A stretch of DNA of 32,000 nt from Sphingobacterium thalpophilum (GTDB lineage: Bacteria > Bacteroidota > Bacteroidia > Sphingobacteriales > Sphingobacteriaceae). Below the pieces are notes generated by a model. The model worked only from the letters and a program-made list of their open reading frames with translations, did no database searches and was not told where the DNA came from. Position numbers and translations under genes: made by a program. Shown piece by piece: positions 3,001 through 19,731 of the stretch. Numbering within the stretch: the first letter of the stretch is position 1; every line of letters starts with the position of its first letter. Location: the NCBI GenBank assembly GCA_943371425.1, contig CALRUR010000001.1, forward strand, positions 44,689-76,688. The letters are read 5' to 3'.

Positions 3001-3226
3001 CCGTGCGGTTATACCTAGCCGCAGTTGTACCACAATTCATTGGTCCCCAAGTTACAGAAGCTGTACTGGTTGCGCTTGGCCCAATTGTTATACTTTGAGC
3101 AAATAACTGAGAGCTAAGTAACAGTCCTAAAAATAAGACATACACGCCTCTGTAATTAATAACAGGAATTGAAAGGCTTAAGGCATAAAAAATGCCTTTT
3201 AAGCGAGAGCTTAAAGTGTTTTTCAT
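1..3226 (-). CDS. Large secreted/cell-surface protein with parallel beta-helix (PbH1-like) repeats and Ig/CARDB-like modules. It is 3'-partial: the C-terminus lies beyond the window start.
   Basis: Not in the ORF track. Manual reverse-complement translation from ATG (cat at 3224-3226) gives MKNTLSSRLKGIFYALSLSIPVINYRGVYVLFLGLLLSSQLFAQ|SITIGPSATS..., which contains a signal-peptide-like h-region. The frame is open where I checked it: 3226 down to about 3000, and positions 2-60 (..NITSQNFTGITLTGSTTSL). Frame arithmetic is consistent, with codon tops at 3226-3k reaching 4. No minus-strand ORF of 60 aa or more is listed in 1..3508, as expected if one stop-less ORF fills the region. Repeated N-rich turns (NTIENNIIKGGNAGIAL, IIKNNIVYNIKSNGIHYG, RYLNNNVSITKGGNG) are typical of right-handed beta-helices. 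Confidence 0.75.
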   Translation of the reverse strand, partial: MKNTLSSRLKGIFYALSLSIPVINYRGVYVLFLGLLLSSQLFAQSITIGPSATSTASVTWGPMNCGTTAARYNRTAYIYPSTLFSNITDGDRILALAFRKAVTTAPAGTSNFKMYIKNTSLTTWPGTLTWATEISNATLVFDGSPNTILGNTSGFKTFPFTNAYIFNGANGNNLAVYVEYTQTAASTAITWIYDTQTGVPDYATGSTRYASSTAGSTPAATLTSSNANHPQLRIDYKHNLNTSVELVSPSGACTGSTDSIRIRVNNLGTNAITSLIVDWEFNGVAQTPFNYTGNIPENASRVIAIGSKTFPAAVPINIKAWTSSLNAAVDKFPANDTVNVKMNGPALAGVYTIGGVGADYPDMLTAVNDLNARGVCAPVTFNVDAASGPYIAQLELKNIVGTSAVNKIIFNGNGAVISDTINSAKVNNKHILFLNGTDYTTFDNFTINYEDGSIYCLAVVIGNNANNNTIKNCRINLDANSTSADFSGISFSASSASYLQATSASYNTIENNIIKGGNAGIALAGTTGSQQLMKGNILQNNIIYDPNLYGIYSTATDSTQILANDISKPNRTLFVTSYGMYITGNSQAVSISKNKIHDAYTQVPSSTATFFGINVTANDARAGKEVIIKNNIVYNIKSNGIHYGLHTNNSDSIQYLNNTVHIDNPNATAGNVGGLYSTGAATGVRYLNNNVSITKGGNGNKHGVWINTADVTAMFNYNNIFVDTTVGKTGQRNVGYFVATPFVTLADWKTANTNMWDQNSISARSLFADASNGDLTPNSFDVNNMGTPLAAVTDDINGVTRNATNPDPGAYEFTPILNDAGLNGSTLVNGSCFGLVPVGFRLKNYGANDLTSAQINWSINGVLQTPHSYTGTLGSGADTMVIVGTRTIGLDTAYTINAWTSLPNAVADNRTSNDTLLNINYKAAMSGTYTVGGVGAKYPSITDAANDLNTRGVCGPVIIDVNKNAGPYNEQIKINDLVGTSAINTVVFKGHGVALNFNSTNSAIRYGFYIDGADYVTIDSFIITPVSSATNFGWGIHLGSNSNYNKITNNVINLNNNITSQNFTGITLTGSTTSL

Positions 3227-3515
3227 AATTTTAAAAAATTTAAAAATACTAGTATGGTAGTTGTAAATACTAATATCGCATATACTAGACAATTATAATA
3301 CCAAATACCCTTATTAATCTAGAAAAATTATCTTTAAATGCTTCTCAGAAATTTGAACTAATTATAAATTCATTCTATTTACCAAGAATTTTATATGAAA
3401 AAGCTTGAATATGTTTGAACAGATTTTTAAAAAAATTATTAAAAGAGATTAAGGTAACTTTTATGTTACATAGAAAATAAAGTATTAAATTATTCACAAT
3501 TCGTACCTTTAAACC

Positions 3516-4508
3516 ATGAAAAAAATAAGAGTAGCCATTAATGGTTTTGGAAGAATAGGAAGAGTTTTTTTAAGAAATGCATTATCAAATCCTGCCATAG
3601 AAATAGTAGCCATTAATGATTTAACTGATAATATAACTTTAGCACATTTATTTAAGTATGACTCAATACACAGAAGCTTTGCTGGAACGATAGCAGTAGC
3701 GGAAGATGGCTTAATTATTAATGGAAGACTCATTAAAAGCTTTGCAGAAAAAGACCCCAGTAATTTACCTTGGGCAGCGTTAAAAATTGATGTGGTAATA
3801 GAATCGACGGGCAAATTTTTAAGTAAAGAAAAAGCAAATTTGCATCTTAATGCCGGTGCCAAAAAAGTTATCCTTTCTGCCCCGCCAACAGATAAAGACA
3901 TCCCTACTATCGTACTAGGCGTAAACAATTCTATTTTAAAAGATAATTATCAGTTAATTTCAAACGCTTCTTGTACTACCAATAATGTGGCACCCATGGT
4001 AAAAGTGTTAGACGAGCTGGGTATAATAGAAGATGGATATATAACTACTGTACACTCGTATACTGGCGATCAGAATTTACACGACGCACCGCATAGAGAT
4101 TTGCGTAGAGCGAGAGCTGCCGCAGTATCAATGATTCCTACTAGTACAGGTGCTGCCAAAGCCATCACCAGTATTTTCCCACACCTCGAAAACAAACTTG
4201 GAGGTGCAGGAATTAGAGTACCAGTGCCTAATGGTTCGCTTACCGATTTTACTTGTTTGTTAAAAAAAGAATTAAGTGTTGCAGAAATTAATGCGGCTTT
4301 TAAACATGCTTCCGAGAATGAGTTAAAAGGTATACTTGAATATACCGAAGATCCAATTGTTTCAATTGATATACAAGAGAACCCACATTCGTGTGTGTTT
4401 GATGCTCAGTTAACATCTGTAGTGGGTAGGTTAGTAAAAGTAGTAGGTTGGTATGATAATGAATGGGGTTATTCTAATCGTTTAGCAGAGCTTTGTGTGC
4501 TTATTTAA
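3516..4508 (+). CDS. gap: Type I glyceraldehyde-3-phosphate dehydrogenase
   Basis: 330 aa. N-terminal NAD-binding motif INGFGRIGR, catalytic SNASCTTN motif and C-terminal WYDNEWGYSNR are hallmark GAPDH signatures. Confidence 0.97.
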   Translation: MKKIRVAINGFGRIGRVFLRNALSNPAIEIVAINDLTDNITLAHLFKYDSIHRSFAGTIAVAEDGLIINGRLIKSFAEKDPSNLPWAALKIDVVIESTGKFLSKEKANLHLNAGAKKVILSAPPTDKDIPTIVLGVNNSILKDNYQLISNASCTTNNVAPMVKVLDELGIIEDGYITTVHSYTGDQNLHDAPHRDLRRARAAAVSMIPTSTGAAKAITSIFPHLENKLGGAGIRVPVPNGSLTDFTCLLKKELSVAEINAAFKHASENELKGILEYTEDPIVSIDIQENPHSCVFDAQLTSVVGRLVKVVGWYDNEWGYSNRLAELCVLI

Positions 4509-5151
4509 TTAAGCGTTCGTTTAATGCTTTTGCAACTGCTTCTGCTTTACTCGCAACATGTAGTTTACCATATATATTACTGATGTGAGTTCTCACCGTA
4601 TCATAACTAATCATTAATTTATCGGTAATGGAATGATAAGAATTTCCTTCGGTTAGTAATTTTAGAATTTCTAATTCTCGTTTTGTTAAATGATAGTCTT
4701 CTTTATTTTCGGCGACAGGTAATTTAATTTCTTCAGAGAATTTTTTGAGAATTTTTCTGGCAATACTAGGTGTCATGGGAGCCCCGCCTTTAATTAATTC
4801 TTTTAAAGCATTCATAATATTTTTAGGGCTAGCACTTTTTAATAAGTAGCCTTGCGCACCTGCACAAATAGATCTAAAAATTTTATCGTCGTCTTCAAAA
4901 ACAGTAAACATTAAAATGGGTATCGATTTATCGTGTGCTCTAATTAAACTAACAGCTTCAATCCCATCCACTGGCGGAATTTCAATGTCCATAATTACCA
5001 AATCTGCTTCGGCATCTATAATATTTTGCACAACATTCTGATAATCTGGAAATGAATTTACAACCCGAAAATCATCGTACCCATTTATCATTAATTCTAA
5101 TGAAGTTCGAATTTTATGGTTATCGTCGAACAATACAACTTTGTGTGGCAT
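4501..5151 (-). CDS. Response regulator, NarL/FixJ (LuxR-type HTH) family
   Basis: 216 aa. The receiver domain has DLVIMDIEIPPVDG (phospho-acceptor Asp) and a conserved K in LLKSASP. The C-terminal HTH reads LTKRELEILKLLTEGNSYHSITDKLMISYDTVRTHISNIYGKLHV. The start sits 1 nt after the stop of the upstream kinase gene. Confidence 0.93.
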   Translation of the reverse strand: MPHKVVLFDDNHKIRTSLELMINGYDDFRVVNSFPDYQNVVQNIIDAEADLVIMDIEIPPVDGIEAVSLIRAHDKSIPILMFTVFEDDDKIFRSICAGAQGYLLKSASPKNIMNALKELIKGGAPMTPSIARKILKKFSEEIKLPVAENKEDYHLTKRELEILKLLTEGNSYHSITDKLMISYDTVRTHISNIYGKLHVASKAEAVAKALNERLIK

Positions 5152-5152
5152 A

Positions 5153-5866
5153 TTATTTATTTAGTGTATTAAGTGGAATTTTTAACATAATTTCTGTGCC
5201 TTCATTTAAGTTAGAGTTTAACAGTAACACCCCTCCTATTTCAGACGTACGTACTTTCATATTCAGTAATCCATTTCCCATTTTTATAGTGTCCTTATTA
5301 AACCCTAGTCCATCATCTTTTATTTTAATAAGTAAATGTTCATGGGTATTCCCTAGCTCAACCGAAATTGAGGTAGCTTTTGCATATTTAACCGCATTGT
5401 TTATGGCTTCTTTACAAATTAAATAAATATCTCTCCGTTTTAATAAATCTATCTTTTGTATATTCTTGGTTGTGTTTGAAAATAAAATTTCTATTTGATT
5501 AGATGCACACATCTGTTTTGCATAATCTTCAATTTTAACAAATAAATTTTCTAGGGAATCGTTTGCAGGGTTTACCATCCATACGATATCCGACATGCTT
5601 TCTACGGTTTGCCTCGCACTCTCGCCCATTTGAGTAAGTATTTGCAAGGCTTCTTGGTTTTTGTTATGTTCTATTCTTTGTTGCACGGCTTGTGCATAAA
5701 AAGAAATACTGCTAAGAGTAGCCCCTACATCGTCGTGCAAATCTCGTGCAATATTATTTCTAATTTTGCTGAGTTTTTTATGTTTGTTTGACTGAATATT
5801 ATTACTTCTGAAAAACAAAACACCTCCTATTACCATAAGAATGGAGCAAACAATAATAATTATCAT
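5153..5866 (-). CDS. Minimal sensor histidine kinase (HisKA_3 + HATPase_c) with a single N-terminal TM helix
   Basis: 237 aa. TM helix MIIIIVCSILMVIGGVLFF, H-box ARDLHDDVGATLSSI (HisKA_3 type), N-box EAINNAVKYA, G-boxes DDGLGF and GNGLLNM. It has essentially no extracytoplasmic domain. Confidence 0.9.
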   Translation of the reverse strand: MIIIIVCSILMVIGGVLFFRSNNIQSNKHKKLSKIRNNIARDLHDDVGATLSSISFYAQAVQQRIEHNKNQEALQILTQMGESARQTVESMSDIVWMVNPANDSLENLFVKIEDYAKQMCASNQIEILFSNTTKNIQKIDLLKRRDIYLICKEAINNAVKYAKATSISVELGNTHEHLLIKIKDDGLGFNKDTIKMGNGLLNMKVRTSEIGGVLLLNSNLNEGTEIMLKIPLNTLNK

Positions 5867-5951
5867 TAAATTGTGATGTTAAATTAATTAGCCCCTTAGG
5901 GAGATAATATTGACTAATTTAAACATTAAATTTGAATTGAATAATAGCAAA

Positions 5952-6533
5952 ATGAGATTCGAGAAAATTAGAGTGTATATAGAAAAACGTTTATTAGAAG
6001 AATTATCTGCTGAATATACTTACCATAGTTACATACATACCCAAGATGTATTAAAGGCAGCATTACTATATGCTGAATTAGAAGAATTGGCAGAAAAAGA
6101 TATTGAGTTATTAAAAGTCGCGGTATTGTTTCATGATTCGGGTTTTTTAATAAACCATAAAGAACATGAAATGCTAAGTTGCGAATTAGCTCGCTCTGTA
6201 CTCCCTCATTTTGATTATTCCGAAGATGAAATAAAAATTATATGTGGAATGGTTATGGCTACCAAAATTCCGCAAAACCCAAGAAGTAAACTAGAACAAA
6301 TTATTTGTGATGCCGATTTAGATTATTTAGGCAGAACAGATTTTTGGGAAATAGGGGCCTTACTATTTAAAGAATTAAGCTATTTAACCATTGTAAAAAA
6401 TGAAATAGAATGGAATAAAATTCAATTGAACTTTTTAGAAAATCATTCTTATTTTACTCAACATGCTATCGATTTACGCCACTCCACCAAACAAAAACAT
6501 CTGCAACAAGTAAAATTAAAAATCGATGAATAA
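5952..6533 (+). CDS. HD-domain metal-dependent phosphohydrolase
   Basis: Motifs H..HTQDV, LFHDSGF (HD dyad) and CDADLDYLG. The track ORF begins at a TTG (5910). The first ATG (5952, MRFEKIRVYIEK) is the more plausible start. Confidence 0.85.
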   Translation: MRFEKIRVYIEKRLLEELSAEYTYHSYIHTQDVLKAALLYAELEELAEKDIELLKVAVLFHDSGFLINHKEHEMLSCELARSVLPHFDYSEDEIKIICGMVMATKIPQNPRSKLEQIICDADLDYLGRTDFWEIGALLFKELSYLTIVKNEIEWNKIQLNFLENHSYFTQHAIDLRHSTKQKHLQQVKLKIDE

Positions 6534-7350
6534 AAATAGTAATTTATTGGTGCCCATAGATTTTAGTCCGGTAACAGAAAAAGCGCTGGAACATGCATGT
6601 ATATTAGCAAAGAACAATTCTGAACACATCCAACTGTTACATGTTATTAAAAATGAGGAGGAGCATATAGCCCAGGAAATTTTACGTAAACTTTCTCAAC
6701 TTGCCGAAAAATATAATTTGCAATACGGCATAAAAATTTTTCCGAACGTAGAAAGAGGAAATATTTTTAATACGATTAGTGATTTTTCGTTGGCTCAAAA
6801 ATCAAAACTTATAGTAATGGGCACACATGGGGTAAAAGGTATACAACACATTACTGGAGCCTTTGCGGTGCGAGTAATTTTAAGCAGTAAAGTTCCGGTA
6901 ATTATTACCCAACTCGAATCTGCATTACCCAAACAATATTCCAAAGTATTAATTCCCATTAATGAATCGGAAGCCATTAAACAGAAGTTATTAAAGGTTG
7001 TAGAATTTGCAAAAATGACGAATGCAAGTATTACTTTGTTCGAGAAAATTTCTACCGATGAAATTGAACAAAATAAAATTAGCTTGAATACTAATTTTTT
7101 CATGAAACATTTAGCTCAACACCAAGTGGAGGTGAATGTAACACGCATGCAAATGCAAAAAAACGATTTCAGCAAAGCATACATAGAGGCAGCCATTGGG
7201 TTGCAAGCAAATTTAATTGTAATTTTAACTACACCCGAAAAAGGGATTAAAGATTTAGTACTTGGCCCTTTAGAGCAACAAGTAATAAACAATACAGCGA
7301 AAATCCCTGTGATGTGTATAAATACCTTACAAACTATTTATTCAGAATAG
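6526..7350 (+). CDS. Tandem-domain universal stress protein (UspA family)
   Basis: 274 aa with two Usp-like halves (LLVPIDFS...[11 protein letters not shown] and VLIPINES...). The start overlaps the HD gene stop by 8 nt (ATGAATAA), suggesting co-translation. Confidence 0.9.
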
Positions 7351-8527
7351 CGGCAACACCGGGTAGTACTTTTCCTTCCATGTATTCTAACAATGCCCCA
7401 CCACCTGTAGACACATAAGAAACATCGTCTGATAAATTAAACTTTGCTACTGCAGCAGCAGAATCGCCACCACCAATTAAAGAGAAGGCACCGTTTTTTG
7501 TAGCTTCTACAACAGCCAATGCTATTTCTTTGGTACCCTTTTCAAAGCTACTCATTTCAAAAACACCCATCGGGCCATTCCACAAAATAGTTTTCGAATT
7601 GGCAATTATTTCTTTAAAAGTGCTGATTGATTTCGGACCAATATCTAAACCCATCCATCCATCGGGTATGGTATCATTATTGGCTATCGATTGTTTAGCA
7701 TCGTTGTTAAATGCATCGGCAATAATAGAATCTGTTGGAAGCGCAAGATTTACTCCTTTCGCTTTTGCTTTTTCTATTAAACTTAATGCCAATTCTAATT
7801 TATCTTGTTCAACCAAAGAGGAACCAATGTTGCCTCCCATTGCCTTTGCAAAAGTGTAGGCCATGCCGCCACCAATAATAATATTGTTTACGGTGTCTAA
7901 TAATTTTTCAATCAATAAAATTTTATCCGAAACTTTTGCACCACCCATAATGGCGGTGAAAGGTCTATCAGCATTATTCATTACTTTCTCGGCATTTGTT
8001 AATTCATTTGCCATCACATAACCAAACACTTTAGCGGTAGGGAAATAATTGGCTACAATGGTTGTAGAAGCGTGTGCTCTGTGTGCAGTGCCAAAAGCAT
8101 CGTTCACATATACATCACCATGTTTTGCTAATTTTGCAGCAAATCCATCGTCGCCTTTTTCTTCTTCTTTATAAAATCGCAGATTTTCTAATAACAAAAT
8201 TTCGCCTGCTTTTAAATTAGCAGATTTAGAAAATGCATCATCCGAAATACAATCATCTGCAAATAATACAGGAGCATGAGTAAGTTCAGCTAAATGCTTT
8301 ACAATATGTTTTAATGAATACTTTTCTACAGGCCCTTCTTTTGGTCGGCCGAGGTGCGACATTAATACTACCGAACCACCATCTGTTAAAATCTTTTTGA
8401 TGGTAGGCAGTGCAGCACGCATACGTGTATCGTCTGTAATTTCAAAAGCAGCATTTAAGGGTACATTAAAATCAACACGAATTAAGGCGCGTTTACCTTG
8501 GAAGTTTATGGTATCAATTGTATTCAT
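7334..8527 (-). CDS. pgk: Phosphoglycerate kinase
   Basis: 397 aa. Contains [34 protein letters not shown] and [12 protein letters not shown], the classic PGK motifs. Confidence 0.97.
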
Positions 8528-8582
8528 TTCTGTAATTTTATTTGAGGCAAAAATAACACATTATCTCAAACTCAAAGCACAT

Positions 8583-8632
8583 TAGCACACTATCTTACTA
8601 GCATACTAACTAACTAGCATACTAGCACACTA
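8583..8632 (+). repeat. TAGCACAC/TAGCATAC word repeat immediately 3' of the motB-like gene (overlaps its stop)
   Basis: tagcacac ta tcttac tagcatac taac taac tagcatac tagcacac taa. Confidence 0.75.
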
Positions 8633-9316
8633 ATAATGTATCCTCAACACCACTCTCCTATTTACAGATTGGTTTGCTGGTATGGGTTCTCCTTTGGGGT
8701 TTCTATTTGGAACAACTGGTTGAGTATCGGCATAGCCTGAAGCTTTTAACCTCCCCGGCGACATTCCTCTATCAATTAAATACCTTACCACATTAGAGGC
8801 TCTTGCTACAGATAACTCCCAGTTAGAGGGGTATTGTAAATTACTAATCGGATTATCGTCGGTATGCCCTTCAACGTCAATTTGGAAATCTGCTTTCTTG
8901 CGTTTATTTACCGCATCAATTACATCAAAAATTTTATCTACAATTTCTTTCCCCTCTGGTAATAACATGGCATCGCCACTGTTGTAAAAGGAGTTGCTTA
9001 AGAAACGCATGTTTATGGCATTGTCTTTATTCTCAATTTCTAAACTATTGCTTTTTACTTCTTGCATCAACATAGAATCTAGCTGATACTTTATTTCGCT
9101 TAGTGGAGTTGACACTTTTTTGCTTTTTACTTTGGAGCTGTAGCTGGCTTTTATTTGATCCCACACATTTTGATCGATGTTAGCCGAGGAAAAAAGTAAA
9201 ATAAAAAAACATAACAAAAGAGTAATTAAATCGGCATACGTAATAAGCCAAAGCTCTTGCTCGGGTTCTCCAAGCAAGGTTTTCTTTACTTTCCTTTTAT
9301 TATCCTCAACACTCAT
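8630..9316 (-). CDS. MotB-like stator B subunit (single TM with conserved Asp, C-terminal OmpA-like peptidoglycan-binding domain)
   Basis: 228 aa. The TM region WLITYADLITLLLCFFILLF carries the Asp equivalent to the proton-carrying MotB Asp. The OmpA-like domain reads VEGHTDDNPI...SNWELSVARASNVVRYL...ASGYADTQP...NRRVVLRI. Confidence 0.9.
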   Translation of the reverse strand: MSVEDNKRKVKKTLLGEPEQELWLITYADLITLLLCFFILLFSSANIDQNVWDQIKASYSSKVKSKKVSTPLSEIKYQLDSMLMQEVKSNSLEIENKDNAINMRFLSNSFYNSGDAMLLPEGKEIVDKIFDVIDAVNKRKKADFQIDVEGHTDDNPISNLQYPSNWELSVARASNVVRYLIDRGMSPGRLKASGYADTQPVVPNRNPKGEPIPANQSVNRRVVLRIHY

Positions 9317-9321
9317 TTTAT

Positions 9322-10143
9322 TTATTTTGTGCTTTTGGTTTGTGTATCTGTATCGCGGCTTACAAACGACATTAATTGATCGCGAATTACCAATGCAGGT
9401 TTATTTTCTTTTATCAATAACATACCTTCTAAAATAATGATCTCTCTGCGTTGTGTATGTAAGGCATTAAATTTTATTTTTTTTGATAAGGGGATGAAAA
9501 ATAAGTTTGCAGAAGCCACTCCGTATAAAGTACCAATTAAACCGGTAGATATACCAGGGCCAATATTAGATGGATCGCTTAAATTATTTAACATCACAAT
9601 CATCCCCAACACCGTTCCCACCATACCAAAGGCTGGTGCGGCATTTGCCATGGCATGAAAAACATCTGATAATTGCAATGACTGTGCATAATCTTTTTCA
9701 ATACTCGTTTCGCCCATGTTTCTAATATCGTGCGATGAATAGTTAGTATTGTATAAATCGAAAAGCATTTTCACAAAAGGATCTTTTTCTGATTGCGAGA
9801 TACTATTTATAAATTCTTTTTTATCTTTTTTTAATCGCTCCGACCAGTTCACCACCATATCCACATCTTCGTTAATAGATAATGCTTTGTGTTTTGTTTG
9901 ACTAAATAATTGACCGAAATTTTTGAATGCAGCAAAAACTACATTTACCGGGTACATTACAAACATTGAGGCTAATACTCCTCCAAACACAATAAAAAAT
10001 CCGGCGAAATGAATGAACGGATTTTTTATAAAGTTAGGTAAATAATGTTCTATACGAATGGCTCCTGCTGTATCCATAATTCCGACAACCATGAAAACAC
10101 TGCATATGAGAAAGCCTATGAAGGATCCAATTGAAAATTTCAT
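9322..10143 (-). CDS. MotA-like stator A subunit (MotA/TolQ/ExbB proton-channel family, 4-TM MotA architecture)
   Basis: 273 aa. Two N-terminal TM helices, a roughly 100-aa charged cytoplasmic loop, then APAFGMVGTVLGMI and GLIGTLYGVASANLFFIPLSKKI (both conserved channel prolines present). The MotA-type C-terminal tail reads IILEGMLLIKENKPALVIRDQL. Confidence 0.9.
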   Translation of the reverse strand: MKFSIGSFIGFLICSVFMVVGIMDTAGAIRIEHYLPNFIKNPFIHFAGFFIVFGGVLASMFVMYPVNVVFAAFKNFGQLFSQTKHKALSINEDVDMVVNWSERLKKDKKEFINSISQSEKDPFVKMLFDLYNTNYSSHDIRNMGETSIEKDYAQSLQLSDVFHAMANAAPAFGMVGTVLGMIVMLNNLSDPSNIGPGISTGLIGTLYGVASANLFFIPLSKKIKFNALHTQRREIIILEGMLLIKENKPALVIRDQLMSFVSRDTDTQTKSTK

Positions 10144-10144
10144 A

Positions 10145-10708
10145 TTATTTTTTTGAAGTAATATCTTTTAATTCTTTTGCTGAGGGCACTCTAATTTCTG
10201 GGTCGAGTTTAGCAGCTTGTATCCATAATGCTTTCGCTTTTTCCTCATCACCCATCACATACAAAATGCTTCCTTTTAATGAAAGTGCTTCTGCCGTTTC
10301 AATTATTTTGAGTGATTCTTCCACATAATCTAATGCCGAACTGTAATCATCAACATATAAAAACTCTTGCGCTCTACGGTAATTTTTGAGCGCAACATTA
10401 ATAGCATCTTGAGCTTCTTTACTTACATTTAAAGTACCATCAATTAAATCTTTTTTAGATTTCGGATCGGTATTCATAGACAATACAAACTCTTCATTGC
10501 CTTTACCAACTGCATATTCTATTGAGGATGCATTGTTTTTATATTTTACATTCACAGGGTCTTTTAGAGAATACGCTCTTCTGGCGTTTTCTGCAATTCG
10601 TTGCTGCTCTGCCAAATCTTGTACGGTATATCGAGTATCGCAGGCTTGTACAGCAAACACACATAAAAGCAATAATATACTACGGCCTATAGATGAAACT
10701 AATCCCAT
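10145..10708 (-). CDS. Lipoprotein with C-terminal TPR-like repeats
   Basis: The track ORF runs to 10735. The internal Met (10708) gives MGLVSSIGRSILLLLCVFAVQAC, a lipobox-like signal with Cys. TPR-like helices follow: AQEFLYVDDYSSALDYVEESLKI..ALSLKGSILYVMGDEEKAKALWIQAAKLDPE. The stop lies 1 nt before the motA-like start. Confidence 0.7.
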   Translation of the reverse strand: MGLVSSIGRSILLLLCVFAVQACDTRYTVQDLAEQQRIAENARRAYSLKDPVNVKYKNNASSIEYAVGKGNEEFVLSMNTDPKSKKDLIDGTLNVSKEAQDAINVALKNYRRAQEFLYVDDYSSALDYVEESLKIIETAEALSLKGSILYVMGDEEKAKALWIQAAKLDPEIRVPSAKELKDITSKK

Positions 10709-11747
10709 ATCCAAATTGTTGTAATTGTAAAACACTGTTTTCTTTTGTAAACTGATTAATCAACATAAAATACCTAAAGTCTACTTCTAAACTTAAGTTT
10801 TGTGATGCATTAAATATTATACCTTGACGAGCGTATGGTGTAATTGAATTTGCTATGTACACATTCATAGATTGGAAAGCTTCTAACCAATATTTTCGGG
10901 GCTGATCGTTTTTCTTTAAAAAAGCAATGGTATAAAACAAGCCTCCATGTGGCAGTACACTGGTAAACTTTGCAATGCCCGTATCTGTTCCTGATGTTAA
11001 CAAATTTAAGAAAGACATACCTGCATTTATTCCATAAAAACCAGATTGATTTTTATTCATTGATTGACGCCAATTAACAGATAAATCTGCACAAGTTGCC
11101 GTAAATTTTTTCCCATTAGATATATCGATATTATCTATTAAATAAGATTGTGTATTATAAAAAGCAACCCCTGCTGTAGCAGAGAATTGAGCTTTACGTG
11201 GGTTGTATAATTGAGGATTTGAATTAATAATAGTACTGTAAATTAATTCTTTTGATCGAGATTTTACTAATTGTAAATTAACTTGATAACCTGTAATATG
11301 ATCATACGTTAATTGCACATACATTAATGCTTGTAAAGAATACTTATCAATTACAGCATCCATCTTTTCTTCATCAAGTATTAATCTTTCAAGAGTGTTC
11401 TGTCTGGTAATTGTTAAGTTAGAATCTGTACCGTTTACAATGGTTAATGGTTTTTGTTTAAACTCTGGTGCTGCTACTATGGTAAAACCACTTACTGCAA
11501 ACACCCCTTCAATTCTGCTTTTAATTTGAATCGCTTCTGTTTCGTTAATAATATAATCTGGATAATCAAAAGATACCAATGCAACTCGTTTGTACAACAA
11601 ATCATTTAAACGAACTTTGTCGGCAATTTCATCCATCAACTCAACTAACTCTAGTTGCTTACGGATGATAGGATTATTTTTATCTACTTGTGCTTTTAGA
11701 TTTAATACTCCAATGGTTAATATAATAAACAATACTATCTTTTTCAT
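10680..11747 (-). CDS. Secreted protein: periplasmic alpha/beta domain followed by a probable outer-membrane beta-barrel
   Basis: 355 aa. Signal peptide MKKIVLFIILTIGVLNLKAQ. The N-terminal segment RVALVSFDYPDYIINETEAIQIKSRIEGVFAVSGFTIVAAPEF resembles the TolB-N/CsgG/FlgO-type motif. The C-terminal half has alternating hydrophobic strands and an aromatic-rich end (GYGISFIYRP), as in OM barrels. The function is inference only. Confidence 0.55.
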   Translation of the reverse strand: MKKIVLFIILTIGVLNLKAQVDKNNPIIRKQLELVELMDEIADKVRLNDLLYKRVALVSFDYPDYIINETEAIQIKSRIEGVFAVSGFTIVAAPEFKQKPLTIVNGTDSNLTITRQNTLERLILDEEKMDAVIDKYSLQALMYVQLTYDHITGYQVNLQLVKSRSKELIYSTIINSNPQLYNPRKAQFSATAGVAFYNTQSYLIDNIDISNGKKFTATCADLSVNWRQSMNKNQSGFYGINAGMSFLNLLTSGTDTGIAKFTSVLPHGGLFYTIAFLKKNDQPRKYWLEAFQSMNVYIANSITPYARQGIIFNASQNLSLEVDFRYFMLINQFTKENSVLQLQQFGYGISFIYRP

Positions 11748-13597
11748 TAAGCAACAAGTTTTAAAGTTCTACGAATAGAATCGATGATAATTTTACGTGA
11801 ATGATCTCTTTCATCAGGGCTTACCGGATTTCCGCTTTCGAGTTCAGATTTAATAAGCGACTGCTCACGTGGTGCGCGTTGTGATATTACTTTGTTTTGT
11901 ACATGTGTGCTTAAGCCTGTTAATGCTTGCACAAGTGTATTGGTATCTATGTCTCTCAATGCCGTTTCTAACTGAAGATCCGTTAGGTACACCACATTTT
12001 TAAACCCTACAAACTGTTGTTTAATATTATTTGCTAACTCTAAATCTTGTGATGCTATAGAACTAATTAATTGATCTTGATCTTCGTCTTGCATTTGATC
12101 TAAAATGTCTAAAATAGATTGTAATCCGTCAAAGGCTACATTCTTCATACCCTTCACATCTATTGCTTTCTTAGAGAAATACGTTGCCACCTCTCTATAG
12201 ATAGAAGATGAAATGAAATCAATTTTACTCATCTTCATTAATATAGAGGAGCGTCTGTTTATTTCTATCATTCCCAAAACATTCTTGGTTCTCTTGCTCT
12301 CTAATTGGGCTAAAAGTATCGCCGATAAATTATCGTCCTCTTCTTTTAACATATGTATAATTTGCGAATCAGTAATTTGATTTAAGAACTCAAATAAATC
12401 TTCATTCCTATCTGGCTCCGCGTTTAAGGATAATAGCTCTTTACTAAAATCTCTTGCTTCTTGATATTTATCGTTATGAGATTTTAATTGATGATTAGAT
12501 ACTGCTTGATTTAATTCGCTGTATGCATTTTCTGCCATAAACGGACGTAAAAAATTCAACAGCTTTGGGTTCACTGCACTCAGTGCATTGGCTGCTCTTG
12601 CTCTTCCTTCTTCTGGGTTGGTAAGCATCCAAGCCTCTATCATTCCGGCAACTTCTTTAGGGTTACTAATTACACTTGTAATAACATGTTGGCGATTAAA
12701 TTCGTAATTAATAATGTCTTCTGTTTGGTAAGAGGATGCTCCATCTGGACCATTCCCGTTAGGATATATAACACTTAGCTCTTGGCCATTTGCATTTTGT
12801 CCGTTCAATAATTTTGGGTCTTCTTCTTTATTTTTCTTCTCTGGATCTTTGCTTTTGCGATATAATAAATACGTAACAAAAACTATTATAATTAAACATA
12901 GAATTAGTAATACTACAAATACATATAACAAAGTATTATCGGTTTCTGCCTTTAATGGCTCTGGCTTTTCATCTCTTTGAATGGGCTCCTGTGGCCTTTG
13001 CTCTGGCAAATAATTGGGTTGTTGCACTGGGCGTGTATTTGCACCAGCTCCTCCTGCAAATAAATCTTCTTTATCTTTCGGGAATACCGATCGCTTAATT
13101 TTTACTACATCACCCTTTGTTTCGTCAATTGGAATAATAGAACGAACTAATGAATTTATAAAATCGATGTCGGTATTTGCATAGGTAGTATCTACAATTA
13201 TGCTGATGTATAAATAGTCAACTTCTTCTATGCTGTAGGTATAATTTTTAGAGGTATCTGTTTCTGTATCTTGGTAACCTTTTGGTAATACTGGCATGCC
13301 CGGTAAACGTTGCAAGGTTTTTTTCTTTCTAGTTGCAGCAACTGGTTTTATTACCTCCACATTTCCTTTCAACATGTTTATGTCTACCAAAAAAGTACTT
13401 GGCGAAAAGAATTTAGTTAACTCTTGCCTAATTACAATTTCAAAATTGTTGGCTTCGTTTAAAGGTTCGGCTCCTTGTCCGCTTTTGGGTTGGTATAAAA
13501 ACGACTGCGCTTTACTCGTATATTCAATTGTGTTGAATAACAAGAGCAATAGCAAAAACAGAAACTTATACATTGGGTTAGTTTTTATGCTCAGCAT
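11747..13597 (-). CDS. Membrane-anchored FliF/YscJ-like (periplasmic ring-building motif) + FliG-like (cytoplasmic N/M/C domains) fusion protein
   Basis: 616 aa. Signal peptide (M)YKFLFLLLLLLFNTIEYTSKAQ, with an alternative ATG at 13573. Periplasmic residues ~52-172 have an alpha-beta-beta-alpha-beta pattern (EIVIRQELTKFF / FLVDINM / YLYISIIVD / DIDFINSLVRSII / VVKIKRS). A P/Q-rich linker is followed by a TM helix at residues 223-246 (LLYVFVVLLILCLIIIVFVTYLLY, then RKSKDPEKKNK, positive-inside). Cytoplasmic residues ~305-613 carry FliG-like motifs: ITDSQIIHMLKEEDDNLSAILLAQLESKRTKNVLGMI, DQLISSIASQDLELANNIKQQFVGFKNVVYLTDLQLETALRDIDTNTLVQALTGLS, and ISQRAPREQSLIKSELESGNPVSPDE. The CDS itself is near certain. 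The domain assignment rests on motifs only. Confidence 0.6.
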   Translation of the reverse strand: MLSIKTNPMYKFLFLLLLLLFNTIEYTSKAQSFLYQPKSGQGAEPLNEANNFEIVIRQELTKFFSPSTFLVDINMLKGNVEVIKPVAATRKKKTLQRLPGMPVLPKGYQDTETDTSKNYTYSIEEVDYLYISIIVDTTYANTDIDFINSLVRSIIPIDETKGDVVKIKRSVFPKDKEDLFAGGAGANTRPVQQPNYLPEQRPQEPIQRDEKPEPLKAETDNTLLYVFVVLLILCLIIIVFVTYLLYRKSKDPEKKNKEEDPKLLNGQNANGQELSVIYPNGNGPDGASSYQTEDIINYEFNRQHVITSVISNPKEVAGMIEAWMLTNPEEGRARAANALSAVNPKLLNFLRPFMAENAYSELNQAVSNHQLKSHNDKYQEARDFSKELLSLNAEPDRNEDLFEFLNQITDSQIIHMLKEEDDNLSAILLAQLESKRTKNVLGMIEINRRSSILMKMSKIDFISSSIYREVATYFSKKAIDVKGMKNVAFDGLQSILDILDQMQDEDQDQLISSIASQDLELANNIKQQFVGFKNVVYLTDLQLETALRDIDTNTLVQALTGLSTHVQNKVISQRAPREQSLIKSELESGNPVSPDERDHSRKIIIDSIRRTLKLVA

Positions 13598-13849
13598 AAG
13601 TAAGAATTGGGTTTATGACTATAGTCGTTTTCTAAAAATATGTATATTTTAATAAAAAACAAACATTAATAATTGCTAGATAGCACAAATAATACCAAAA
13701 TACTTCCTAATTATAATATTATCAGCCTCTATATTCAACAAAAACCAATTAAAATATTGCTTTTCAGGTAAATACACATACATTTTAATTGAGAAAAAAA
13801 TGTAACATCTATTTATTCGGGCAAAATTTGGTAGATTTTATTCCAAAAA

Positions 13850-14254
13850 TTATTCATTTCCTTCCCAAGATGATTGCATATCGTCTATCTCACGTCGATC
13901 TTTTTTGGTAGGCCTACCTGTTCCTCTATCGCGTTTTAATACGGGTACCGTAAACACCGAAAACAAACGTGGGGTATCGTTTACAGGGCTTAAATCTTCG
14001 TAATATTTTTGTGCAGTGGGAGCATCCACCCTTTTATCTAAAATATCAATAACCTTTACAATTTTCTTTTGCTGATCTTTTTGTATGTGGATTATATCGC
14101 CCTGTTTTACTACATAAGAGGCTTTAATACTCTGGCTTTCTAGCTTTACTCTCCCAGCTTTGCAGGCATCACTTGCCAATGACCTGGTTTTAAAAATGCG
14201 TATTGCCCATAAATATTTATCTATTCGCGTTTTATCCTTGTTCTCGTCGGCCAT
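13850..14254 (-). CDS. S4-domain RNA-binding protein (Hsp15/HslR-like)
   Basis: 134 aa. The S4 motif RIDKYLWAIRIFKTRSLASDACKAGRVKLESQSIKASYVVKQGDII is followed by a basic C-terminal tail. Confidence 0.85.
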   Translation of the reverse strand: MADENKDKTRIDKYLWAIRIFKTRSLASDACKAGRVKLESQSIKASYVVKQGDIIHIQKDQQKKIVKVIDILDKRVDAPTAQKYYEDLSPVNDTPRLFSVFTVPVLKRDRGTGRPTKKDRREIDDMQSSWEGNE

Positions 14255-14325
14255 AACACAATATTTAATAATTAATGTTGATAGATTTATAATAGATTTC
14301 GTAAAATCGTATAAATTTACAGCAT

Positions 14326-15144
14326 ATGATTAATAAAGATAAAGAATTAATAGAAAAAGCTTGGGAAGACAGAAATATGCTGACTTACCCAGATGTGATA
14401 CAAGCAATTGAGTTTGTAATAGAAAAACTTGATAAGGGCGAATTAAGAGTTGCAGAGCCAGTAATGAACAGGTGGCACGTAAACGAATGGGTAAAGAAAG
14501 CAGTGTTATTATATTTTCCCATATCGGTAATGCAAGAAATAAAAGTTGGGCCTTTTGTTTTTCATGATAAAATGAAATTAAAAACCAATTACAAAGCAGC
14601 TGGAGTAAGAGTGGTACCACATGCTGTTGCAAGATACGGTGCGTTTTTAGCAAAAGGAGTTATTATGATGCCATCATACGTAAACATTGGTGCGTATGTT
14701 GACGAAGGAACCATGGTAGACACTTGGGCAACCGTTGGTTCTTGTGCTCAAATTGGTAAGAATGTACATTTAAGTGGTGGTGTTGGTATTGGCGGAGTAT
14801 TAGAACCTTTACAAGCGGCTCCAGTAGTAATTGAAGATGGTTGTTTTGTAGGTTCTCGTTGTATTGTAGTTGAAGGTGTACGTGTAGAAAAGGAAGCTGT
14901 ACTTGGTGCAAATGTTGTATTAACAGCATCTACCAAAATAATAGATGTAACAGGCGAAGAACCTGTAGAATATAAAGGTGTAGTACCATCGCGCTCGGTA
15001 GTAATACCAGGTTCTTACACTAAAAAGTTCCCAGCCGGAGAATTTCAAGTACCTTGCGCATTAATAATCGGTAAAAGAAAAGAATCTACCGATTTAAAAA
15101 CCTCTCTTAATGAAACGTTGAGAGAATATAATGTGGCAGTTTAA
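14326..15144 (+). CDS. dapD: 2,3,4,5-tetrahydropyridine-2,6-dicarboxylate N-succinyltransferase
   Basis: 272 aa. It has a left-handed beta-helix hexapeptide run (GAYVDEGTMVDTWATVGSCAQIGKNVHLSGGVGIGGVLEPLQAAPVVIEDGCFVGSRCIVVEGVRV) and the DapD-type N-terminal domain. Confidence 0.92.
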   Translation: MINKDKELIEKAWEDRNMLTYPDVIQAIEFVIEKLDKGELRVAEPVMNRWHVNEWVKKAVLLYFPISVMQEIKVGPFVFHDKMKLKTNYKAAGVRVVPHAVARYGAFLAKGVIMMPSYVNIGAYVDEGTMVDTWATVGSCAQIGKNVHLSGGVGIGGVLEPLQAAPVVIEDGCFVGSRCIVVEGVRVEKEAVLGANVVLTASTKIIDVTGEEPVEYKGVVPSRSVVIPGSYTKKFPAGEFQVPCALIIGKRKESTDLKTSLNETLREYNVAV

Positions 15145-18111: not shown

Positions 18112-18997
18112 CGTGTATTTTATCTTCTATGTATTTTTGTATATGATGTAAATCTTTGTAATTAAACCAAACTATTTCTTCGTCGCGGCGAAACCAAGTG
18201 AACTGCCTTTTGGCATATCGCCTCGTATTTCTTTTTATTAATTCGATTGCTGTATCACGCGAATGTTTCCCCTCAAAATAATCGAACCACTCTGTATATC
18301 CAACGGTTTGCAAGGCATATTCGTTTTTAGAAGGGTATAACTTTTTCGCTTCTTCTTCTAATCCTGCATGTACCATTTCATCTACTCGAGTGTTAATGCG
18401 ATGGTATAACAATTCACGATCGTCTGTTAAGCCAATTTTAATAATGTTAAAATCTCGCGCTTTTTTATTTCCTGTTCTGAGTTCCGAATATTTTTTACCT
18501 GTTAACAAAATAATTTCCAAGGCACGCATTAAACGTTGCGGATTCTGAACATCAACTTCTGCATAATACTCTGGGTCTAGGGCTTTCAGTTTATCTTGCA
18601 AACTTTCTAAAGATTCTTTCGCTAAATTATTTCGCAACTCATCGTCGCGCAGCTCCACAGGATCAAGCCCTTCGCACAATGCTTGTATATATAAACCCGA
18701 GCCTCCTACAGCAATTACTGTTTGGTATTTTTTAAACAATTCTGATAAAGTTTCTAAAGCCAAACGTTCGAAAGTGCCTGCATCTACTACCTCTTTAAAT
18801 GAATGTGAATTAATGAGGTGGTGTTTTACACTTGCCAATTCTTCATCACTAGGCTTTGCCGTTCCTATTTCCAACTCTTTGTAAAACTGACGAGAATCTG
18901 TTGATAAAATTTCCGTTTGGTAATGTTTCGCAAGTTCAATTGCCATGGAGGTTTTTCCAACTGCGGTAGGACCGACGATGAGGAGCAGGGTTTTCAT
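18101..18997 (-). CDS. miaA: tRNA dimethylallyltransferase
   Basis: 298 aa. P-loop GPTAVGKTSMAIELA, DSRQFYKELEIGTAKP and GGSGLY are the MiaA signatures. Confidence 0.96.
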   Translation of the reverse strand: MKTLLLIVGPTAVGKTSMAIELAKHYQTEILSTDSRQFYKELEIGTAKPSDEELASVKHHLINSHSFKEVVDAGTFERLALETLSELFKKYQTVIAVGGSGLYIQALCEGLDPVELRDDELRNNLAKESLESLQDKLKALDPEYYAEVDVQNPQRLMRALEIILLTGKKYSELRTGNKKARDFNIIKIGLTDDRELLYHRINTRVDEMVHAGLEEEAKKLYPSKNEYALQTVGYTEWFDYFEGKHSRDTAIELIKRNTRRYAKRQFTWFRRDEEIVWFNYKDLHHIQKYIEDKIHDVQ

Positions 18998-19020
18998 TAA
19001 ATGGTGTAAATAAAATTAAA

Positions 19021-19080
19021 AATTATGAATTATGAATTATGAATTATGAATGAACGCGCTTTCATTCATAATTCATAATT
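19021..19080. terminator. Heptamer-built hairpin of the same AATTATG/CATAATT family, downstream of the 197-aa gene and upstream of miaA
   Basis: aattatgaattatgaattatgaattatgaatgaa, then loop cgcgc(t), then ttcattcataattcataatt. The left arm is longer (34 nt) than the right arm (20 nt). Confidence 0.7.
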
Positions 19081-19086
19081 TAAATA

Positions 19087-19680
19087 CTATATTTCCTCGT
19101 CGAACTCTGTTCCAAACTCATCCTTCTCTGCTTCCTCCCCTTCTTCTTCTTCAGCTGCGCCATCGTCGAAGCCCATTTCATCGCGGTCTTCTTCATCTTC
19201 GGCATATTCTAACACATTTAAGAAATCGAGGTCTCCGTTTTCTTCGGTAGCCGAAATAATTGGAACGTTGCCAAATTGCTTTGGTGCTTCGCCAATGGTT
19301 TTAACACATAAAGGGTAGGCTACTTTTGCATCTTCGTTAATTACAATTTTAATCAACTCAATATGGAAGGTCCAAGGTTTTTCGAAATTGAATACGTAGT
19401 ATATTTTTTGATGTGGATCTACAATAAAGTTTTTTAAAACCGATGCATCCATCAAACTTACTTTTTCATTTTTAAGGTCTTTTTCAAACTGAGTAATTTC
19501 TTTGCCTTTATGCCAATAATCGTTACTCATGTAAAAAGATGCCGAAGCATTTCCATCAAAGCCAATGGATTGGTGAATTGTTTTATGGAAATCGGCGAAT
19601 GTTTGGTTCGATTTTATTTCAATATCTCTACTGATATCGTCGTAATCTTCAAAACTAACACGGAATTTATAAACAGCCAT
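19087..19680 (-). CDS. Hypothetical protein with MM3350/pRiA4b-ORF3-like N-terminal domain and strongly acidic C-terminal tail
   Basis: 197 aa. YKFRVSFEDYDDISRDIEIKSNQTFADFHKTIHQSIGFDGNASASFYMSND resembles the MM3350-like domain pattern. The tail reads DEEDRDEMGFDDGAAEEEEGEEAEKDEFGTEFDEEI. Confidence 0.5.
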   Translation of the reverse strand: MAVYKFRVSFEDYDDISRDIEIKSNQTFADFHKTIHQSIGFDGNASASFYMSNDYWHKGKEITQFEKDLKNEKVSLMDASVLKNFIVDPHQKIYYVFNFEKPWTFHIELIKIVINEDAKVAYPLCVKTIGEAPKQFGNVPIISATEENGDLDFLNVLEYAEDEEDRDEMGFDDGAAEEEEGEEAEKDEFGTEFDEEI

Positions 19681-19731
19681 AGTGTATTCTAATCTTTATA
19701 CAAAATAAAGAAATCTTATGATTAATAATGA

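Follow-up and report, generated by a model that had tools for sequence, protein, structure and literature searches.

The window, 32,000 nt of Sphingobacterium thalpophilum DNA (assembly GCA_943371425.1, contig CALRUR010000001.1, forward-strand positions 44,689-76,688), contains a five-gene operon on the minus strand (8630-13597). In order of transcription, its ORFs are gene 1 (11747-13597, 616 aa), gene 2 (10680-11747, 355 aa), gene 3 (10145-10735 and 196 aa from GTG, or 10145-10708 and 187 aa from ATG), gene 4 (9322-10143, 273 aa) and gene 5 (8630-9316, 228 aa). The ORF listing reproduces the tight packing and all four junctions described in the first-pass annotation: genes 1 and 2 meet at TAATG, with base 11747 common to stop and start; gene 3, if it begins at its ATG, shares 29 nt with gene 2 (10680-10708), and this start (10708) matches the 188-aa gene call of the ortholog in locus L024; one nucleotide (10144) lies between genes 3 and 4, and five (9317-9321) between genes 4 and 5. 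The sole sizeable gap, 252 nt upstream of the operon (13598..13849, minus strand), is presumably its promoter region; a sigma-70 scan, which does not cover Bacteroidota promoters, gave no sites above those of shuffled sequences there. As described earlier, the operon is surrounded by pgk, an S4-domain gene and dapD, three genes for T9SS-CTD cargo are found at 28-32 kb, and the 32-kb window has no detectable flagellar genes other than the operon's own.

Gene 1 appears to be a natural fusion of the C-terminal half of FliF (RBM3/collar, transmembrane (TM) helix and tail) with a full FliG, and we propose that its product is a rotor subunit. The cytoplasmic FliG-like region, comprising the N, M and C domains, occupies aa 289-615 (11753..12733, minus strand), as delimited by profile, fold and alignment. 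FliG_C (PF01706) is matched at 1e-16 (61.6 bits, cut-off 23.3) and is found in all 67 diverse family members; FliG_M is matched at 6.6e-8 (33.1 bits, cut-off 25), and FliG_N falls just below its cut-off (3.2e-4, 21.7 against 25) and matches 55 of the 67 members. In a phmmer search of PDB, aa 336-611 align with residues 42-315 of Salmonella FliG, while the family profile matches full-length FliG (3hjl) at 3e-36 over residues 13-323 and also aligns to the FliG_N structure 5tdy_B. The 616-aa protein nonetheless differs from free cytoplasmic FliG of about 330 aa: it carries a signal peptide, periplasmic domain and TM helix, and scores 85.9 bits with the NCBIfam FliG equivalog TIGR00207, the cut-off of which is 226.7. 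Homologs of gene 1 are annotated at JGI as 'flagellar motor switch protein FliG'. The putative torque helix, aa 574-588 (11834-11878, minus strand), includes R577, equivalent to R281 of FliG and at least 90% conserved across the family, and E585, equivalent to D289. The EHPQR motif, with which FliG binds FliM, has been lost from 11/11 aligned sequences (the window protein and 10 diverse members), with Glu alone kept (EEDDN...K).

The N-terminal part of the protein is FliF-like. It starts with a hydrophobic segment (helix 8-28) that resembles a cleaved signal peptide (aa 1-31, 13505..13597, minus strand); the boundary between ...TSKAQ and SF was called by eye, and the AQ-type cleavage context is kept in homologs. 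An RBM3/collar-like periplasmic domain follows at aa 43-172 (13082..13471, minus strand), recognized by AlphaFold2 secondary structure, Foldseek and Pfam; its predicted fold is α-β-β-α-β with a long β-hairpin. Foldseek aligns this domain with 8ftf_A, 6sd1_A and 8zdt_A (E about 1e-3, probability 1.0, 153-166 columns, TM-score 0.42-0.45), and in the whole-protein model (pLDDT 81) the top matches are full-length FliG (305-325 columns), followed by FliF RBM3. YscJ_FliF_C (PF08345) matches aa 117-172 just below its cut-off (3.9e-4, 21.3 bits against 23.8) and is found in 23 of the 67 family members, with the best E-value of 7e-8. The FliF-like match of the window's own protein is modest both in sequence and in fold, and the earlier FliF/FliG-like call is borne out by significant FliG matches in the protein itself and by FliF matches in the family. 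Weak FliF matches of the family profile are co-linear, running from the end of RBM3 through TM2 and the C-tail to FliG_N. PF01514, which covers RBM1 and RBM2, has no match in gene 1, and the periplasmic part, of about 190 aa, holds one RBM only. There is likewise one TM helix (aa 222-249, 12851..12934, minus strand, helical in the AlphaFold2 model), not the two of FliF, and a hydropathy peak is seen at its position in 126 of 129 full-length representatives. The tip of the β-hairpin is a disordered loop with the motif LPGMPVLP (aa 98-105, 13283..13306, minus strand), whose P99 and G100 show no variation across the 67 diverse members and whose P102 has a conservation of at least 90%; the pattern [LIVMF]PG[LIVMFA]P is present in 109 of the 129 full-length representatives. 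A periplasmic partner may dock at this conserved loop.

Genes 4 and 5 encode a stator. Gene 4 (9322..10143, minus strand) is a flagellar-type MotA, similar to PomA and MotP, with a long cytoplasmic domain between TM2 and TM3. It matches MotA_ExbB (PF01618) at 1e-20 and the flagellar MotA/MotP/PomA models of NCBIfam at 1e-39 to 1e-18, as opposed to 2e-4 for TolQ and 0.05 (0.047) for ExbB, although no equivalog cut-off is reached (best score 135.8 against 237). Its sequence matches in PDB are flagellar MotA and PomA only, with no ExbB or TolQ chains. Gene 5 (8630..9316, minus strand) is a MotB with a TM Asp (D29, equivalent to D32 of E. coli MotB), a plug and an OmpA-type peptidoglycan-binding domain; it matches MotB_plug at 8e-16 (57.8, cut-off 24), OmpA at 1e-16 (61.5, cut-off 27.2) and the MotD, MotB and MotS models of NCBIfam at 1e-44 to 1e-32. 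PADLOC gives no ZorA match for gene 4, only generic MotB-like ZorB matches, and no other defence genes. Sequence comparison thus identifies the pair as MotA/MotB of the flagellar type, and as neither Tol, Exb nor Zor, in line with the first-pass annotation, whose claims of two channel prolines (equivalents of P173 and P222), a long loop, a TM Asp and an OmpA-like anchor are all confirmed by alignment and Pfam.

The canonical rotor-stator charge pairs, FliG R281-MotA E98 and FliG D289-MotA R90, were scored in eight non-independent loci with adjacent MotAB. At least one pair is kept in 8/8 of them and the pair residues co-vary, with the reservation that the MotA loop alignment is uncertain. The same reservation applies to the residues of gene 4, where K106 is the R90 equivalent and N113 stands at the E98 position, so that in the window lineage one of the two pairs is intact and E98 is replaced by N. 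Both torque-helix charges are missing in L017, which also has no adjacent MotAB and is the sole such homolog among those examined.

The two remaining genes encode envelope proteins. Gene 2 (10680..11747, minus strand) has no sequence match in Pfam, NCBIfam or PDB. Its AlphaFold2 model (pLDDT 74) consists of a signal peptide, a TolB-N/LpoB-like α/β domain (aa ~26-175) and an eight-stranded outer-membrane β-barrel (aa ~187-353), with Foldseek matches to TolB, LpoB-C, NspA, OmpA-TM, OmpW and Ail; the fold guessed earlier from the letters was the same. Homologs occupy the same operon slot and share an aromatic C-terminal residue, and from the model we predict that gene 2 encodes an outer-membrane barrel joined to a TolB-N/LpoB-like domain in the periplasm. 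Gene 3 (10145..10708, minus strand) is, as annotated, a TPR protein (TPR_2, 3.5e-7), with a lipobox-like ...VQAC indicative of a lipoprotein. A homolog is found beside the fusion gene in 11/11 contexts examined, with the lipobox Cys in most.

The gene 1 family is broad and of multi-phylum scale (GC 32-69%), and the fusion architecture recurs in no fewer than 126 of the 150 best clusters (50% identity). All related loci long enough to show it have the five genes in an identical order, both among the closer relatives (L001-L010 and L024, 63-94% identity) and in distant ones (L011, L013, L018, L020 and L021, 23-34% identity, contig GC about 32-65%), and therefore the arrangement is far beyond chance. 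The conservation suggested in the first-pass annotation is upheld, but not the restriction to a lineage. The ratio dN/dS is 0.026-0.061 for all five genes and 0.015-0.065 for pgk and dapD; the operon is under strong purifying selection, equal to that on the flanking housekeeping genes. In 12 close relatives, flanks of about 10 kb hold no fli, flg or flh genes. In one distant lineage, L021, genuine fliR and flhB, both above their equivalog cut-offs, are found 1.1 kb from the module. The lack of flagellar genes nearby is thus a trait of the host, seen in the window and in the flanks of close relatives, and not of the family, and in some lineages a link to flagella may exist, judging from this gene context.

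On balance, the operon probably encodes a self-contained, ion-driven, switchless rotor-stator machine, derived from the flagellar motor core and working without a flagellum. The gene 1 protein would be exported with its N-terminus out and anchored via one TM helix, and its RBM3/collar-like domain would assemble into a ring like that of RBM3 in the MS-ring; the FliG domains, being covalently attached, would then be arranged as a ring beneath the membrane. MotA5B2-type units made of genes 4 and 5 would be tethered to peptidoglycan by MotB, H+ or Na+ would flow past the conserved MotB Asp and MotA prolines, and the ring would turn as the cytoplasmic domain of MotA pushes the torque helix of FliG_C via the charge pairs that are kept. 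With EHPQR gone there would be no switch complex, hence rotation would be unidirectional and outside chemotactic control. Genes 2 and 3 would form the periplasmic and outer-membrane part, either as a scaffold or bushing, or as the load that carries work to the outer membrane. Against this, a ring with neither rod nor export gate inside has no obvious mechanical output. The first-pass annotation had also proposed a self-contained ion-driven machine, which the domains, stator type and synteny support: of the four refuting conditions it named, the three that were checked (profile matches, stator affiliation and gene order in relatives) did not go against it. This analysis shows what the domains are, how broad the family is, its synteny, the purifying selection on it and the conservation of its residues; we infer that a ring forms, that the mechanism is rotary, and what genes 2 and 3 do. 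Full-text searches of the literature found no descriptions of the five-gene system. The operon suggests to us that the flagellar-type rotary engine has a second use besides the flagellum.

A machine without a ring seems rather unlikely to us. MotAB would then drive one or a few copies of the FliG-like protein in the role of TolA or TonB, with no large spinning rotor, and energy would cross the periplasm to the barrel and the TPR lipoprotein, to be used in tethering the outer membrane, in envelope homeostasis or in transport. The gene set parallels Tol-Pal (TolQRA-TolB-Pal-CpoB), which is also a trans-envelope set: both have an ion-driven 5:2 motor in the inner membrane, a transducer anchored there, a fold of the TolB-N kind, OmpA-like elements (here the barrel), a TPR protein (CpoB in Tol-Pal) and housekeeping neighbours. 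A single RBM, a short periplasmic part, and strong purifying selection in a housekeeping neighbourhood, as in envelope-maintenance systems, suit this reading. However, the motor here is MotAB-type and not TolQR/ExbBD (TolQ 2e-4, flagellar models 1e-39), a FliF/FliG-like partner replaces TolA, and neither a TolB β-propeller nor Pal is present. The RBM3/collar module is known for ring formation, and FliG domains mediate ring packing; the periplasmic domain of gene 1 is specifically RBM3/collar-like and all three FliG domains are retained, both of which argue against a machine without a ring.

The likeness to the flagellar motor core extends to homologous TM, FliG N/M/C and torque-helix Arg, to a probably homologous RBM3/collar, and to a MotA5B2-type stator with plug, Asp, prolines and peptidoglycan anchor; the same torque-generation mechanism is expected. 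That the operon belongs to a real flagellum encoded elsewhere, as a variant or extra MS/C-ring and stator set or as an extra stator locus, is nevertheless improbable, even with the JGI labels and with fliR and flhB adjoining the L021 module. RBM1 and RBM2, on which the export gate is seated in FliF, are absent, with a signal peptide replacing TM1; FliF and FliG are one polypeptide; EHPQR and the FliM/FliN switch are missing and the FliG equivalog score is low; genes for the T3SS export gate, rod, hook, filament and LP-ring are not nearby in the window and its close relatives' ~10-kb flanks; and the conserved partners are a non-flagellar outer-membrane barrel protein and TPR lipoprotein. The host, moreover, is one of the Bacteroidota, with T9SS cargo, and this phylum generally has no genes for the filament, the C-ring or the MS/P/L-ring (bioRxiv 10.1101/2024.12.05.626484). 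Scattered flagellar genes often persist in non-motile bacteria (same source), as would be expected if the operon were a decaying, functionless relic of a lost flagellum, but such decay is hardly credible: dN/dS of 0.03-0.06 in all five genes, the same as in the housekeeping neighbours, effectively refutes it, the ORFs are unbroken and have junctions of the translational-coupling type, gene order is kept down to 23% identity, and the fusion architecture and non-flagellar partners are conserved.

A covalent 1:1 link of FliF to FliG is also found in engineered or spontaneous fusions in Salmonella and Vibrio (PMC6079021, PMC11481574; PDB 8z4d). These assemble rings, a point in favour of a gene 1 ring; they are laboratory constructs with full-length FliF in a complete flagellum, whereas gene 1 is natural, truncated and widely conserved. 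GldLM/PorLM, of the T9SS and gliding, is likewise a non-flagellar ion-driven motor of Bacteroidota whose work crosses the periplasm to the outer membrane, but has no sequence relation to the operon: the GldL and GldM families are not matched, and here stator and rotor are flagellar-type. With the poor TolQ and ExbB scores and no ZorA match, this agrees with the earlier statement that the operon is distinct from GldLM/PorLM, ExbBD-TonB, TolQR and Zorya. Reuse of MotAB-family motors outside the flagellum is known from Zorya (ZorAB-ZorCD) and Agl-Glt; the operon differs from the former in having no ZorC/D, and from both in its FliG and RBM ring protein, which neither of them has. AglRQS is TolQR-type.

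Five closely packed minus-strand open reading frames make up the operon at 8630-13597, and the ORF listing places them at the coordinates claimed in the first-pass annotation. In transcription order, they are gene 1 (11747-13597, 616 aa), which encodes a FliF/FliG-like fusion; gene 2 (10680-11747, 355 aa), for a predicted outer-membrane barrel protein; gene 3 (10145-10735, 196 aa from a GTG start, or 187 aa from an ATG at 10708), for a TPR lipoprotein; and genes 4 (9322-10143, 273 aa) and 5 (8630-9316, 228 aa), for MotA and MotB. The reported junctions were recovered as well: a stop and a start sharing one base between genes 1 and 2 (TAATG at 11745-11749), a 1-nt spacer between genes 3 and 4, a 5-nt gap between genes 4 and 5, and, provided that gene 3 starts at the ATG, a 29-nt overlap of genes 2 and 3. 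The ATG start is consistent with the 188-aa gene call in an 88%-identical ortholog (L024, on a 3.2-Mb contig). Apart from the 252 nt that precede gene 1, the operon has no sizeable non-coding stretch; a scan for sigma-70 promoters and terminators, which does not cover Bacteroidota promoters, returned sites no more than shuffled sequences did. The operon is flanked on one side by gapdh, genes for a LuxR-type response regulator and a HisKA_3 kinase, usp and pgk, and on the other by an S4-domain gene, dapD and a GT4 glycosyltransferase gene. The 32-kb window contains no flagellar genes, as had been noted before, and no tRNA or Rfam family was found in it.

Gene 1 matches Pfam FliG_C (1e-16) and FliG_M (6.6e-8) over the curated cut-offs, and FliG_N (3.2e-4) and YscJ_FliF_C (3.9e-4, aa 117-172) just under them. 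The NCBIfam FliG equivalog aligns with aa 399-610 (3e-24) at 85.9 bits, far under its cut-off of 226.7, so that gene 1 encodes a FliG homolog, not an ordinary FliG ortholog; in a phmmer comparison with PDB sequences, aa 336-611 correspond to residues 42-315 of Salmonella FliG. The AlphaFold2 model, built on an alignment of 67 diverse homologs (mean pLDDT 81), starts with an N-terminal hydrophobic helix and an AQ-type cleavage context, followed by a periplasmic α-β-β-α-β domain (aa 43-172) with two strands of ~17 residues and a disordered loop (aa 86-118), a single TM helix (222-249), a disordered linker, and an all-helical cytoplasmic region (289-615). When this model is compared with PDB by Foldseek, full-length FliG comes first (8wiw, 3hjl; E 7e-9, 305-325 aligned columns), and next comes the RBM3/β-collar block of the FliF MS-ring (8ftf, 6sd1, 8zdt and others; E ~1e-3, probability 1.0, ~155-165 columns).

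The family profile matches residues 13-323 of full-length Aquifex FliG (3e-36) and the isolated FliG_N domain 5tdy_B (6e-4). Its match to FliF is weak and co-linear, the RBM3 end falling at profile positions 108-170 and FliF 453-560 (TM2 and C-terminal tail) at positions 207-316. Among the 67 aligned family members, Pfam detects FliG_C in all, FliG_M in 65, FliG_N in 55 and YscJ_FliF_C in 23 (best E-value 7e-8). Because of the Pfam, AlphaFold2, Foldseek and profile results taken together, gene 1 is best seen as an in-frame fusion that joins FliF's C-terminal half (RBM3/collar, TM2 and tail) to a complete FliG, with a signal peptide in place of FliF TM1, RBM1 and RBM2. For the protein in the window, the FliF-like assignment draws on a sub-threshold Pfam hit and a moderate Foldseek match, and is strengthened by the family-level matches. 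Gene 1 differs from FliG in equivalog score, EHPQR motif and membrane-anchored architecture, and from FliF in having no RBM1, RBM2 or second TM helix. Two apparently FliG-only representatives do not testify to a split form: P0116 is a contig-end fragment, and P0078, with its non-Met start, looks like another.

The stator genes are of flagellar type. Gene 4 has a MotA_ExbB domain (1e-20), and the NCBIfam models that score best on it are flagellar without exception (PRK09109 1e-39, MotP 7e-35, PomA 7e-29, MotA 3e-27), versus 2e-4 for TolQ and 0.05 for ExbB; at E <0.01, only flagellar MotA/PomA chains are matched among PDB sequences. Equivalents of E. coli P173 and P222 are preserved. Gene 5 combines a plug (8e-16) with an OmpA-type peptidoglycan-binding domain (1e-16), and D29 in its TM helix is the equivalent of D32. 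Judged by a recent stator classification (PMC12505986), genes 4 and 5 are assigned, from model scores, not from a tree, to a flagellar-clade, PomA-like stator and not to the generic Tol/Exb type; on these scores, a Tol/Exb-type motor is rejected.

Interface positions were read from alignment to E. coli FliG and MotA, in which the loop alignment is uncertain. The equivalent of FliG R281 is R577, conserved in at least 90% of the family; that of D289 is E585 in the window and mostly acidic elsewhere; D288, R297 and K264 are not conserved. On the MotA side, R90 corresponds to K106 and E98 to N113 in the window. We compared charge pairs across eight loci with adjacent MotAB, a small sample of loci that are not independent. 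An acidic residue at the D289 position is accompanied by K or R at the R90 position in 4 of 5 loci, and A or S by Q in 3 of 3, all three of which keep the other pair (R with D). From this R90/D289 pattern, together with the R-D pair in the remaining three, at least one canonical charge pair is present in 8/8 of these loci. In L017, which has no adjacent MotAB, both FliG torque-helix charges are lost. Charge pairs are redundant in flagellar motors (PMC6079164). The pattern is suggestive evidence, short of decisive. The FliM-contacting EHPQR motif of FliG is reduced to its Glu in every member aligned, which is consistent with the absence of a switch complex.

Gene 2 has no match in Pfam, NCBIfam or PDB sequences. 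Its AlphaFold2 model (pLDDT 74) consists of an N-terminal α/β domain and a C-terminal 8-stranded barrel. Foldseek relates the α/β domain to LpoB (its C-terminal domain) and to TolB (10-12% identity, best E 5e-6), where we attribute the match to the N-terminal domain; the barrel matches NspA, the OmpA TM domain, OmpW and Ail. Outer-membrane barrels end in an aromatic residue, and so do the gene 2 homologs, equal in size, that occupy this operon position in distant loci. Gene 3 contains a TPR_2 repeat and a lipobox-like cysteine, and its homolog adjoins the fusion gene in all 11 contexts examined.

When gene 1 served as query in a full HMMER scan of 1.84 billion cluster representatives, 2442 matches reached E <=1e-3, including 86 at <=1e-30. 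In the best 150 of these 2442, 129 are at least 520 aa long; 126 of the 129 contain an internal TM helix followed by ~300 aa or more, and a [LIVMF]PG[LIVMFA]P motif occurs in the periplasmic part of 109. This motif, LPGMPVLP in the window, lies in a loop at a β-hairpin tip, with P99 and G100 invariant in the 67-sequence alignment, and the loop is a plausible candidate docking site. Close relatives (63-94% identity) come from freshwater MAGs labelled Sphingobacteriales, and every contig that is long enough has the five genes in the same order, between S4/dapD and pgk. The same five-gene order is found in distant loci (L011, L013, L018, L020 and L021; 23-34% identity, GC 33-65%); L022 and L019 have the fusion gene, the TPR gene and MotAB, and L014 and L017 have the TPR gene alone beside the fusion gene. 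GC content (32-69%) and gene neighbours hint that the distant members belong to several phyla. No match was found in plasmids by tblastn. For the window versus L001 or L003, dN/dS of the five genes is 0.026-0.061, a level like that of pgk and dapD (0.015-0.065), and the operon is therefore not a decaying relic.

Beyond the observed domain identities, conservation, synteny, selection and residue patterns, the best-supported reading of the operon is a stand-alone rotor-stator machine, for which we infer that a ring forms, that it rotates and what genes 2 and 3 contribute. The gene 1 product would form an inner-membrane ring via its RBM3-like domain, and the covalently attached FliG domains a cytoplasmic ring; peptidoglycan-anchored MotA5B2 units would use ion flow to drive rotation by acting on the FliG_C torque helix, much as in the flagellar motor core. 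With no switch, rotation would be unidirectional. In the periplasm and outer membrane, the products of genes 2 and 3 would serve as scaffold, bushing or load. Laboratory fusions of FliF and FliG form rings (PMC6079021, PMC11481574), so that the natural fusion is mechanistically credible. A new, widely distributed ion-driven rotary machine of this kind, in which a free-standing FliF/FliG ring is turned by MotAB and acts on the envelope via the outer-membrane barrel and TPR lipoprotein, independently of type III secretion and of a filament, is a proposal to which we give slightly less than an even chance.

The operon belongs to none of the Zorya, Tol/Ton, GldLM and Agl-Glt systems. A defence role, as Zorya or otherwise, is rejected on the missing ZorA match (none found in a PADLOC search), the housekeeping neighbourhood and the conserved synteny. 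The main rival, a Tol-like force transducer that does not form a ring, draws on the resemblance of the gene set to Tol-Pal, and we consider it rather unlikely. An accessory role in flagella appears more improbable still. It is favoured by L021 (GC 39%; 157-2019 and 8192-9700), where fliR and flhB, both over the NCBIfam flagellar equivalog cut-offs, are found 1.1 kb upstream of the five-gene module and a response-regulator diguanylate cyclase follows closely after it; the module can thus co-exist with a flagellum in that lineage. However, the FliM site is lost, RBM1/2 are missing and the partners are non-flagellar, which argues for a separate device even in L021. Neither c-di-GMP genes (PilZ in L013, GGDEF in L021) nor polysaccharide genes (L013, L018) show a link that is consistent from one locus to the next.

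To our knowledge, FliG is the only partner of flagellar MotAB stators, and we know of no FliG-MotAB pair outside flagella. Searches of openly accessible full texts turned up no account of a membrane-anchored FliG in nature or of a FliG-MotAB operon in non-flagellated bacteria; the nearest are engineered FliF-FliG fusions and a general remark that non-motile genomes contain rotor proteins. Neither gene 1 nor gene 2 is covered by a model in NCBIfam (June 2026). The operon places a known device, the flagellar-type torque generator, in a new and apparently flagellum-less setting, and there is a substantial chance that the module is new in its own right as a rotary machine. A conserved FliG-MotAB operon under purifying selection in a non-flagellated phylum would give the flagellar torque generator a second biological use, lengthen the short list of ion-driven rotary machines by one, and offer a minimal five-gene, switchless system for studies of torque generation. 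It also bears on how a secretion apparatus gained rotation in flagellar evolution: if the module is a sister lineage, not an offshoot, of the flagellar motor, we would have in it a surviving example of the rotor-stator unit that was joined to a secretion system at the origin of flagellar rotation. The finding accounts for part of the rotor-protein signal that large surveys pick up in non-motile genomes, and it corrects the label "flagellar motor switch protein FliG", which automatic annotation gives to the gene 1 family and which could lead motility predictions from genomes astray.

Several neighbouring features were recorded. A response regulator/kinase pair (window 4501-5866) lies 2.7 kb downstream of motB; it is similar to an insertion in L008 (5344-7763) that sits immediately upstream of the fusion gene and comprises, besides a LuxR-type response regulator and a HisKA_3 kinase, a small ORF and a multi-TM protein. 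L006 and L009, with a similar ~2.7-kb gap, probably have the same insertion, and the pair is a possible dedicated regulator. In L013 (GC 65%), a PilZ protein and several CarboxypepD_reg/PEGA-type envelope proteins (3409-7907) precede the module and an EpsL-like outer-membrane barrel (BBP2_2, 13406-14539) follows it; none of these neighbours was seen in other loci. In L017 (8048-13746), the family member is 777 aa long and may be a derived, stator-less form; its neighbours are the TPR gene, a 422-aa protein without family match and a Sel1-repeat protein whose match (1e-12) is MotX-like. In L024, the stretch 3-5 kb downstream of motB (18231-21854) contains genes for a PorP/SprF-family protein and a LytTR response regulator, and an 11,416-aa protein that may be a SprB-like T9SS adhesin begins there. 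Elsewhere in the window, three consecutive ~500-aa proteins with T9SS C-terminal sorting domains (Por_Secre_tail; 28133-31999, minus strand) are apparently a tandem paralog array of T9SS cargo, and an ORF of more than 1097 aa that runs off the left end (2-3292, minus strand) has a right-handed β-helix region and probably encodes a large secreted or surface protein. A PRiA4_ORF3-like (plasmid pRiA4b ORF-3) protein (19087-19680, minus strand) is encoded between a CCA-adding/poly(A) polymerase-like gene and miaA, a position kept in L024. The AcrB/RND permease at 22298-26641 (plus strand) is 1447 aa long, as in L024, and its last ~413 aa (25400-26641) form a C-terminal extension without Pfam match.
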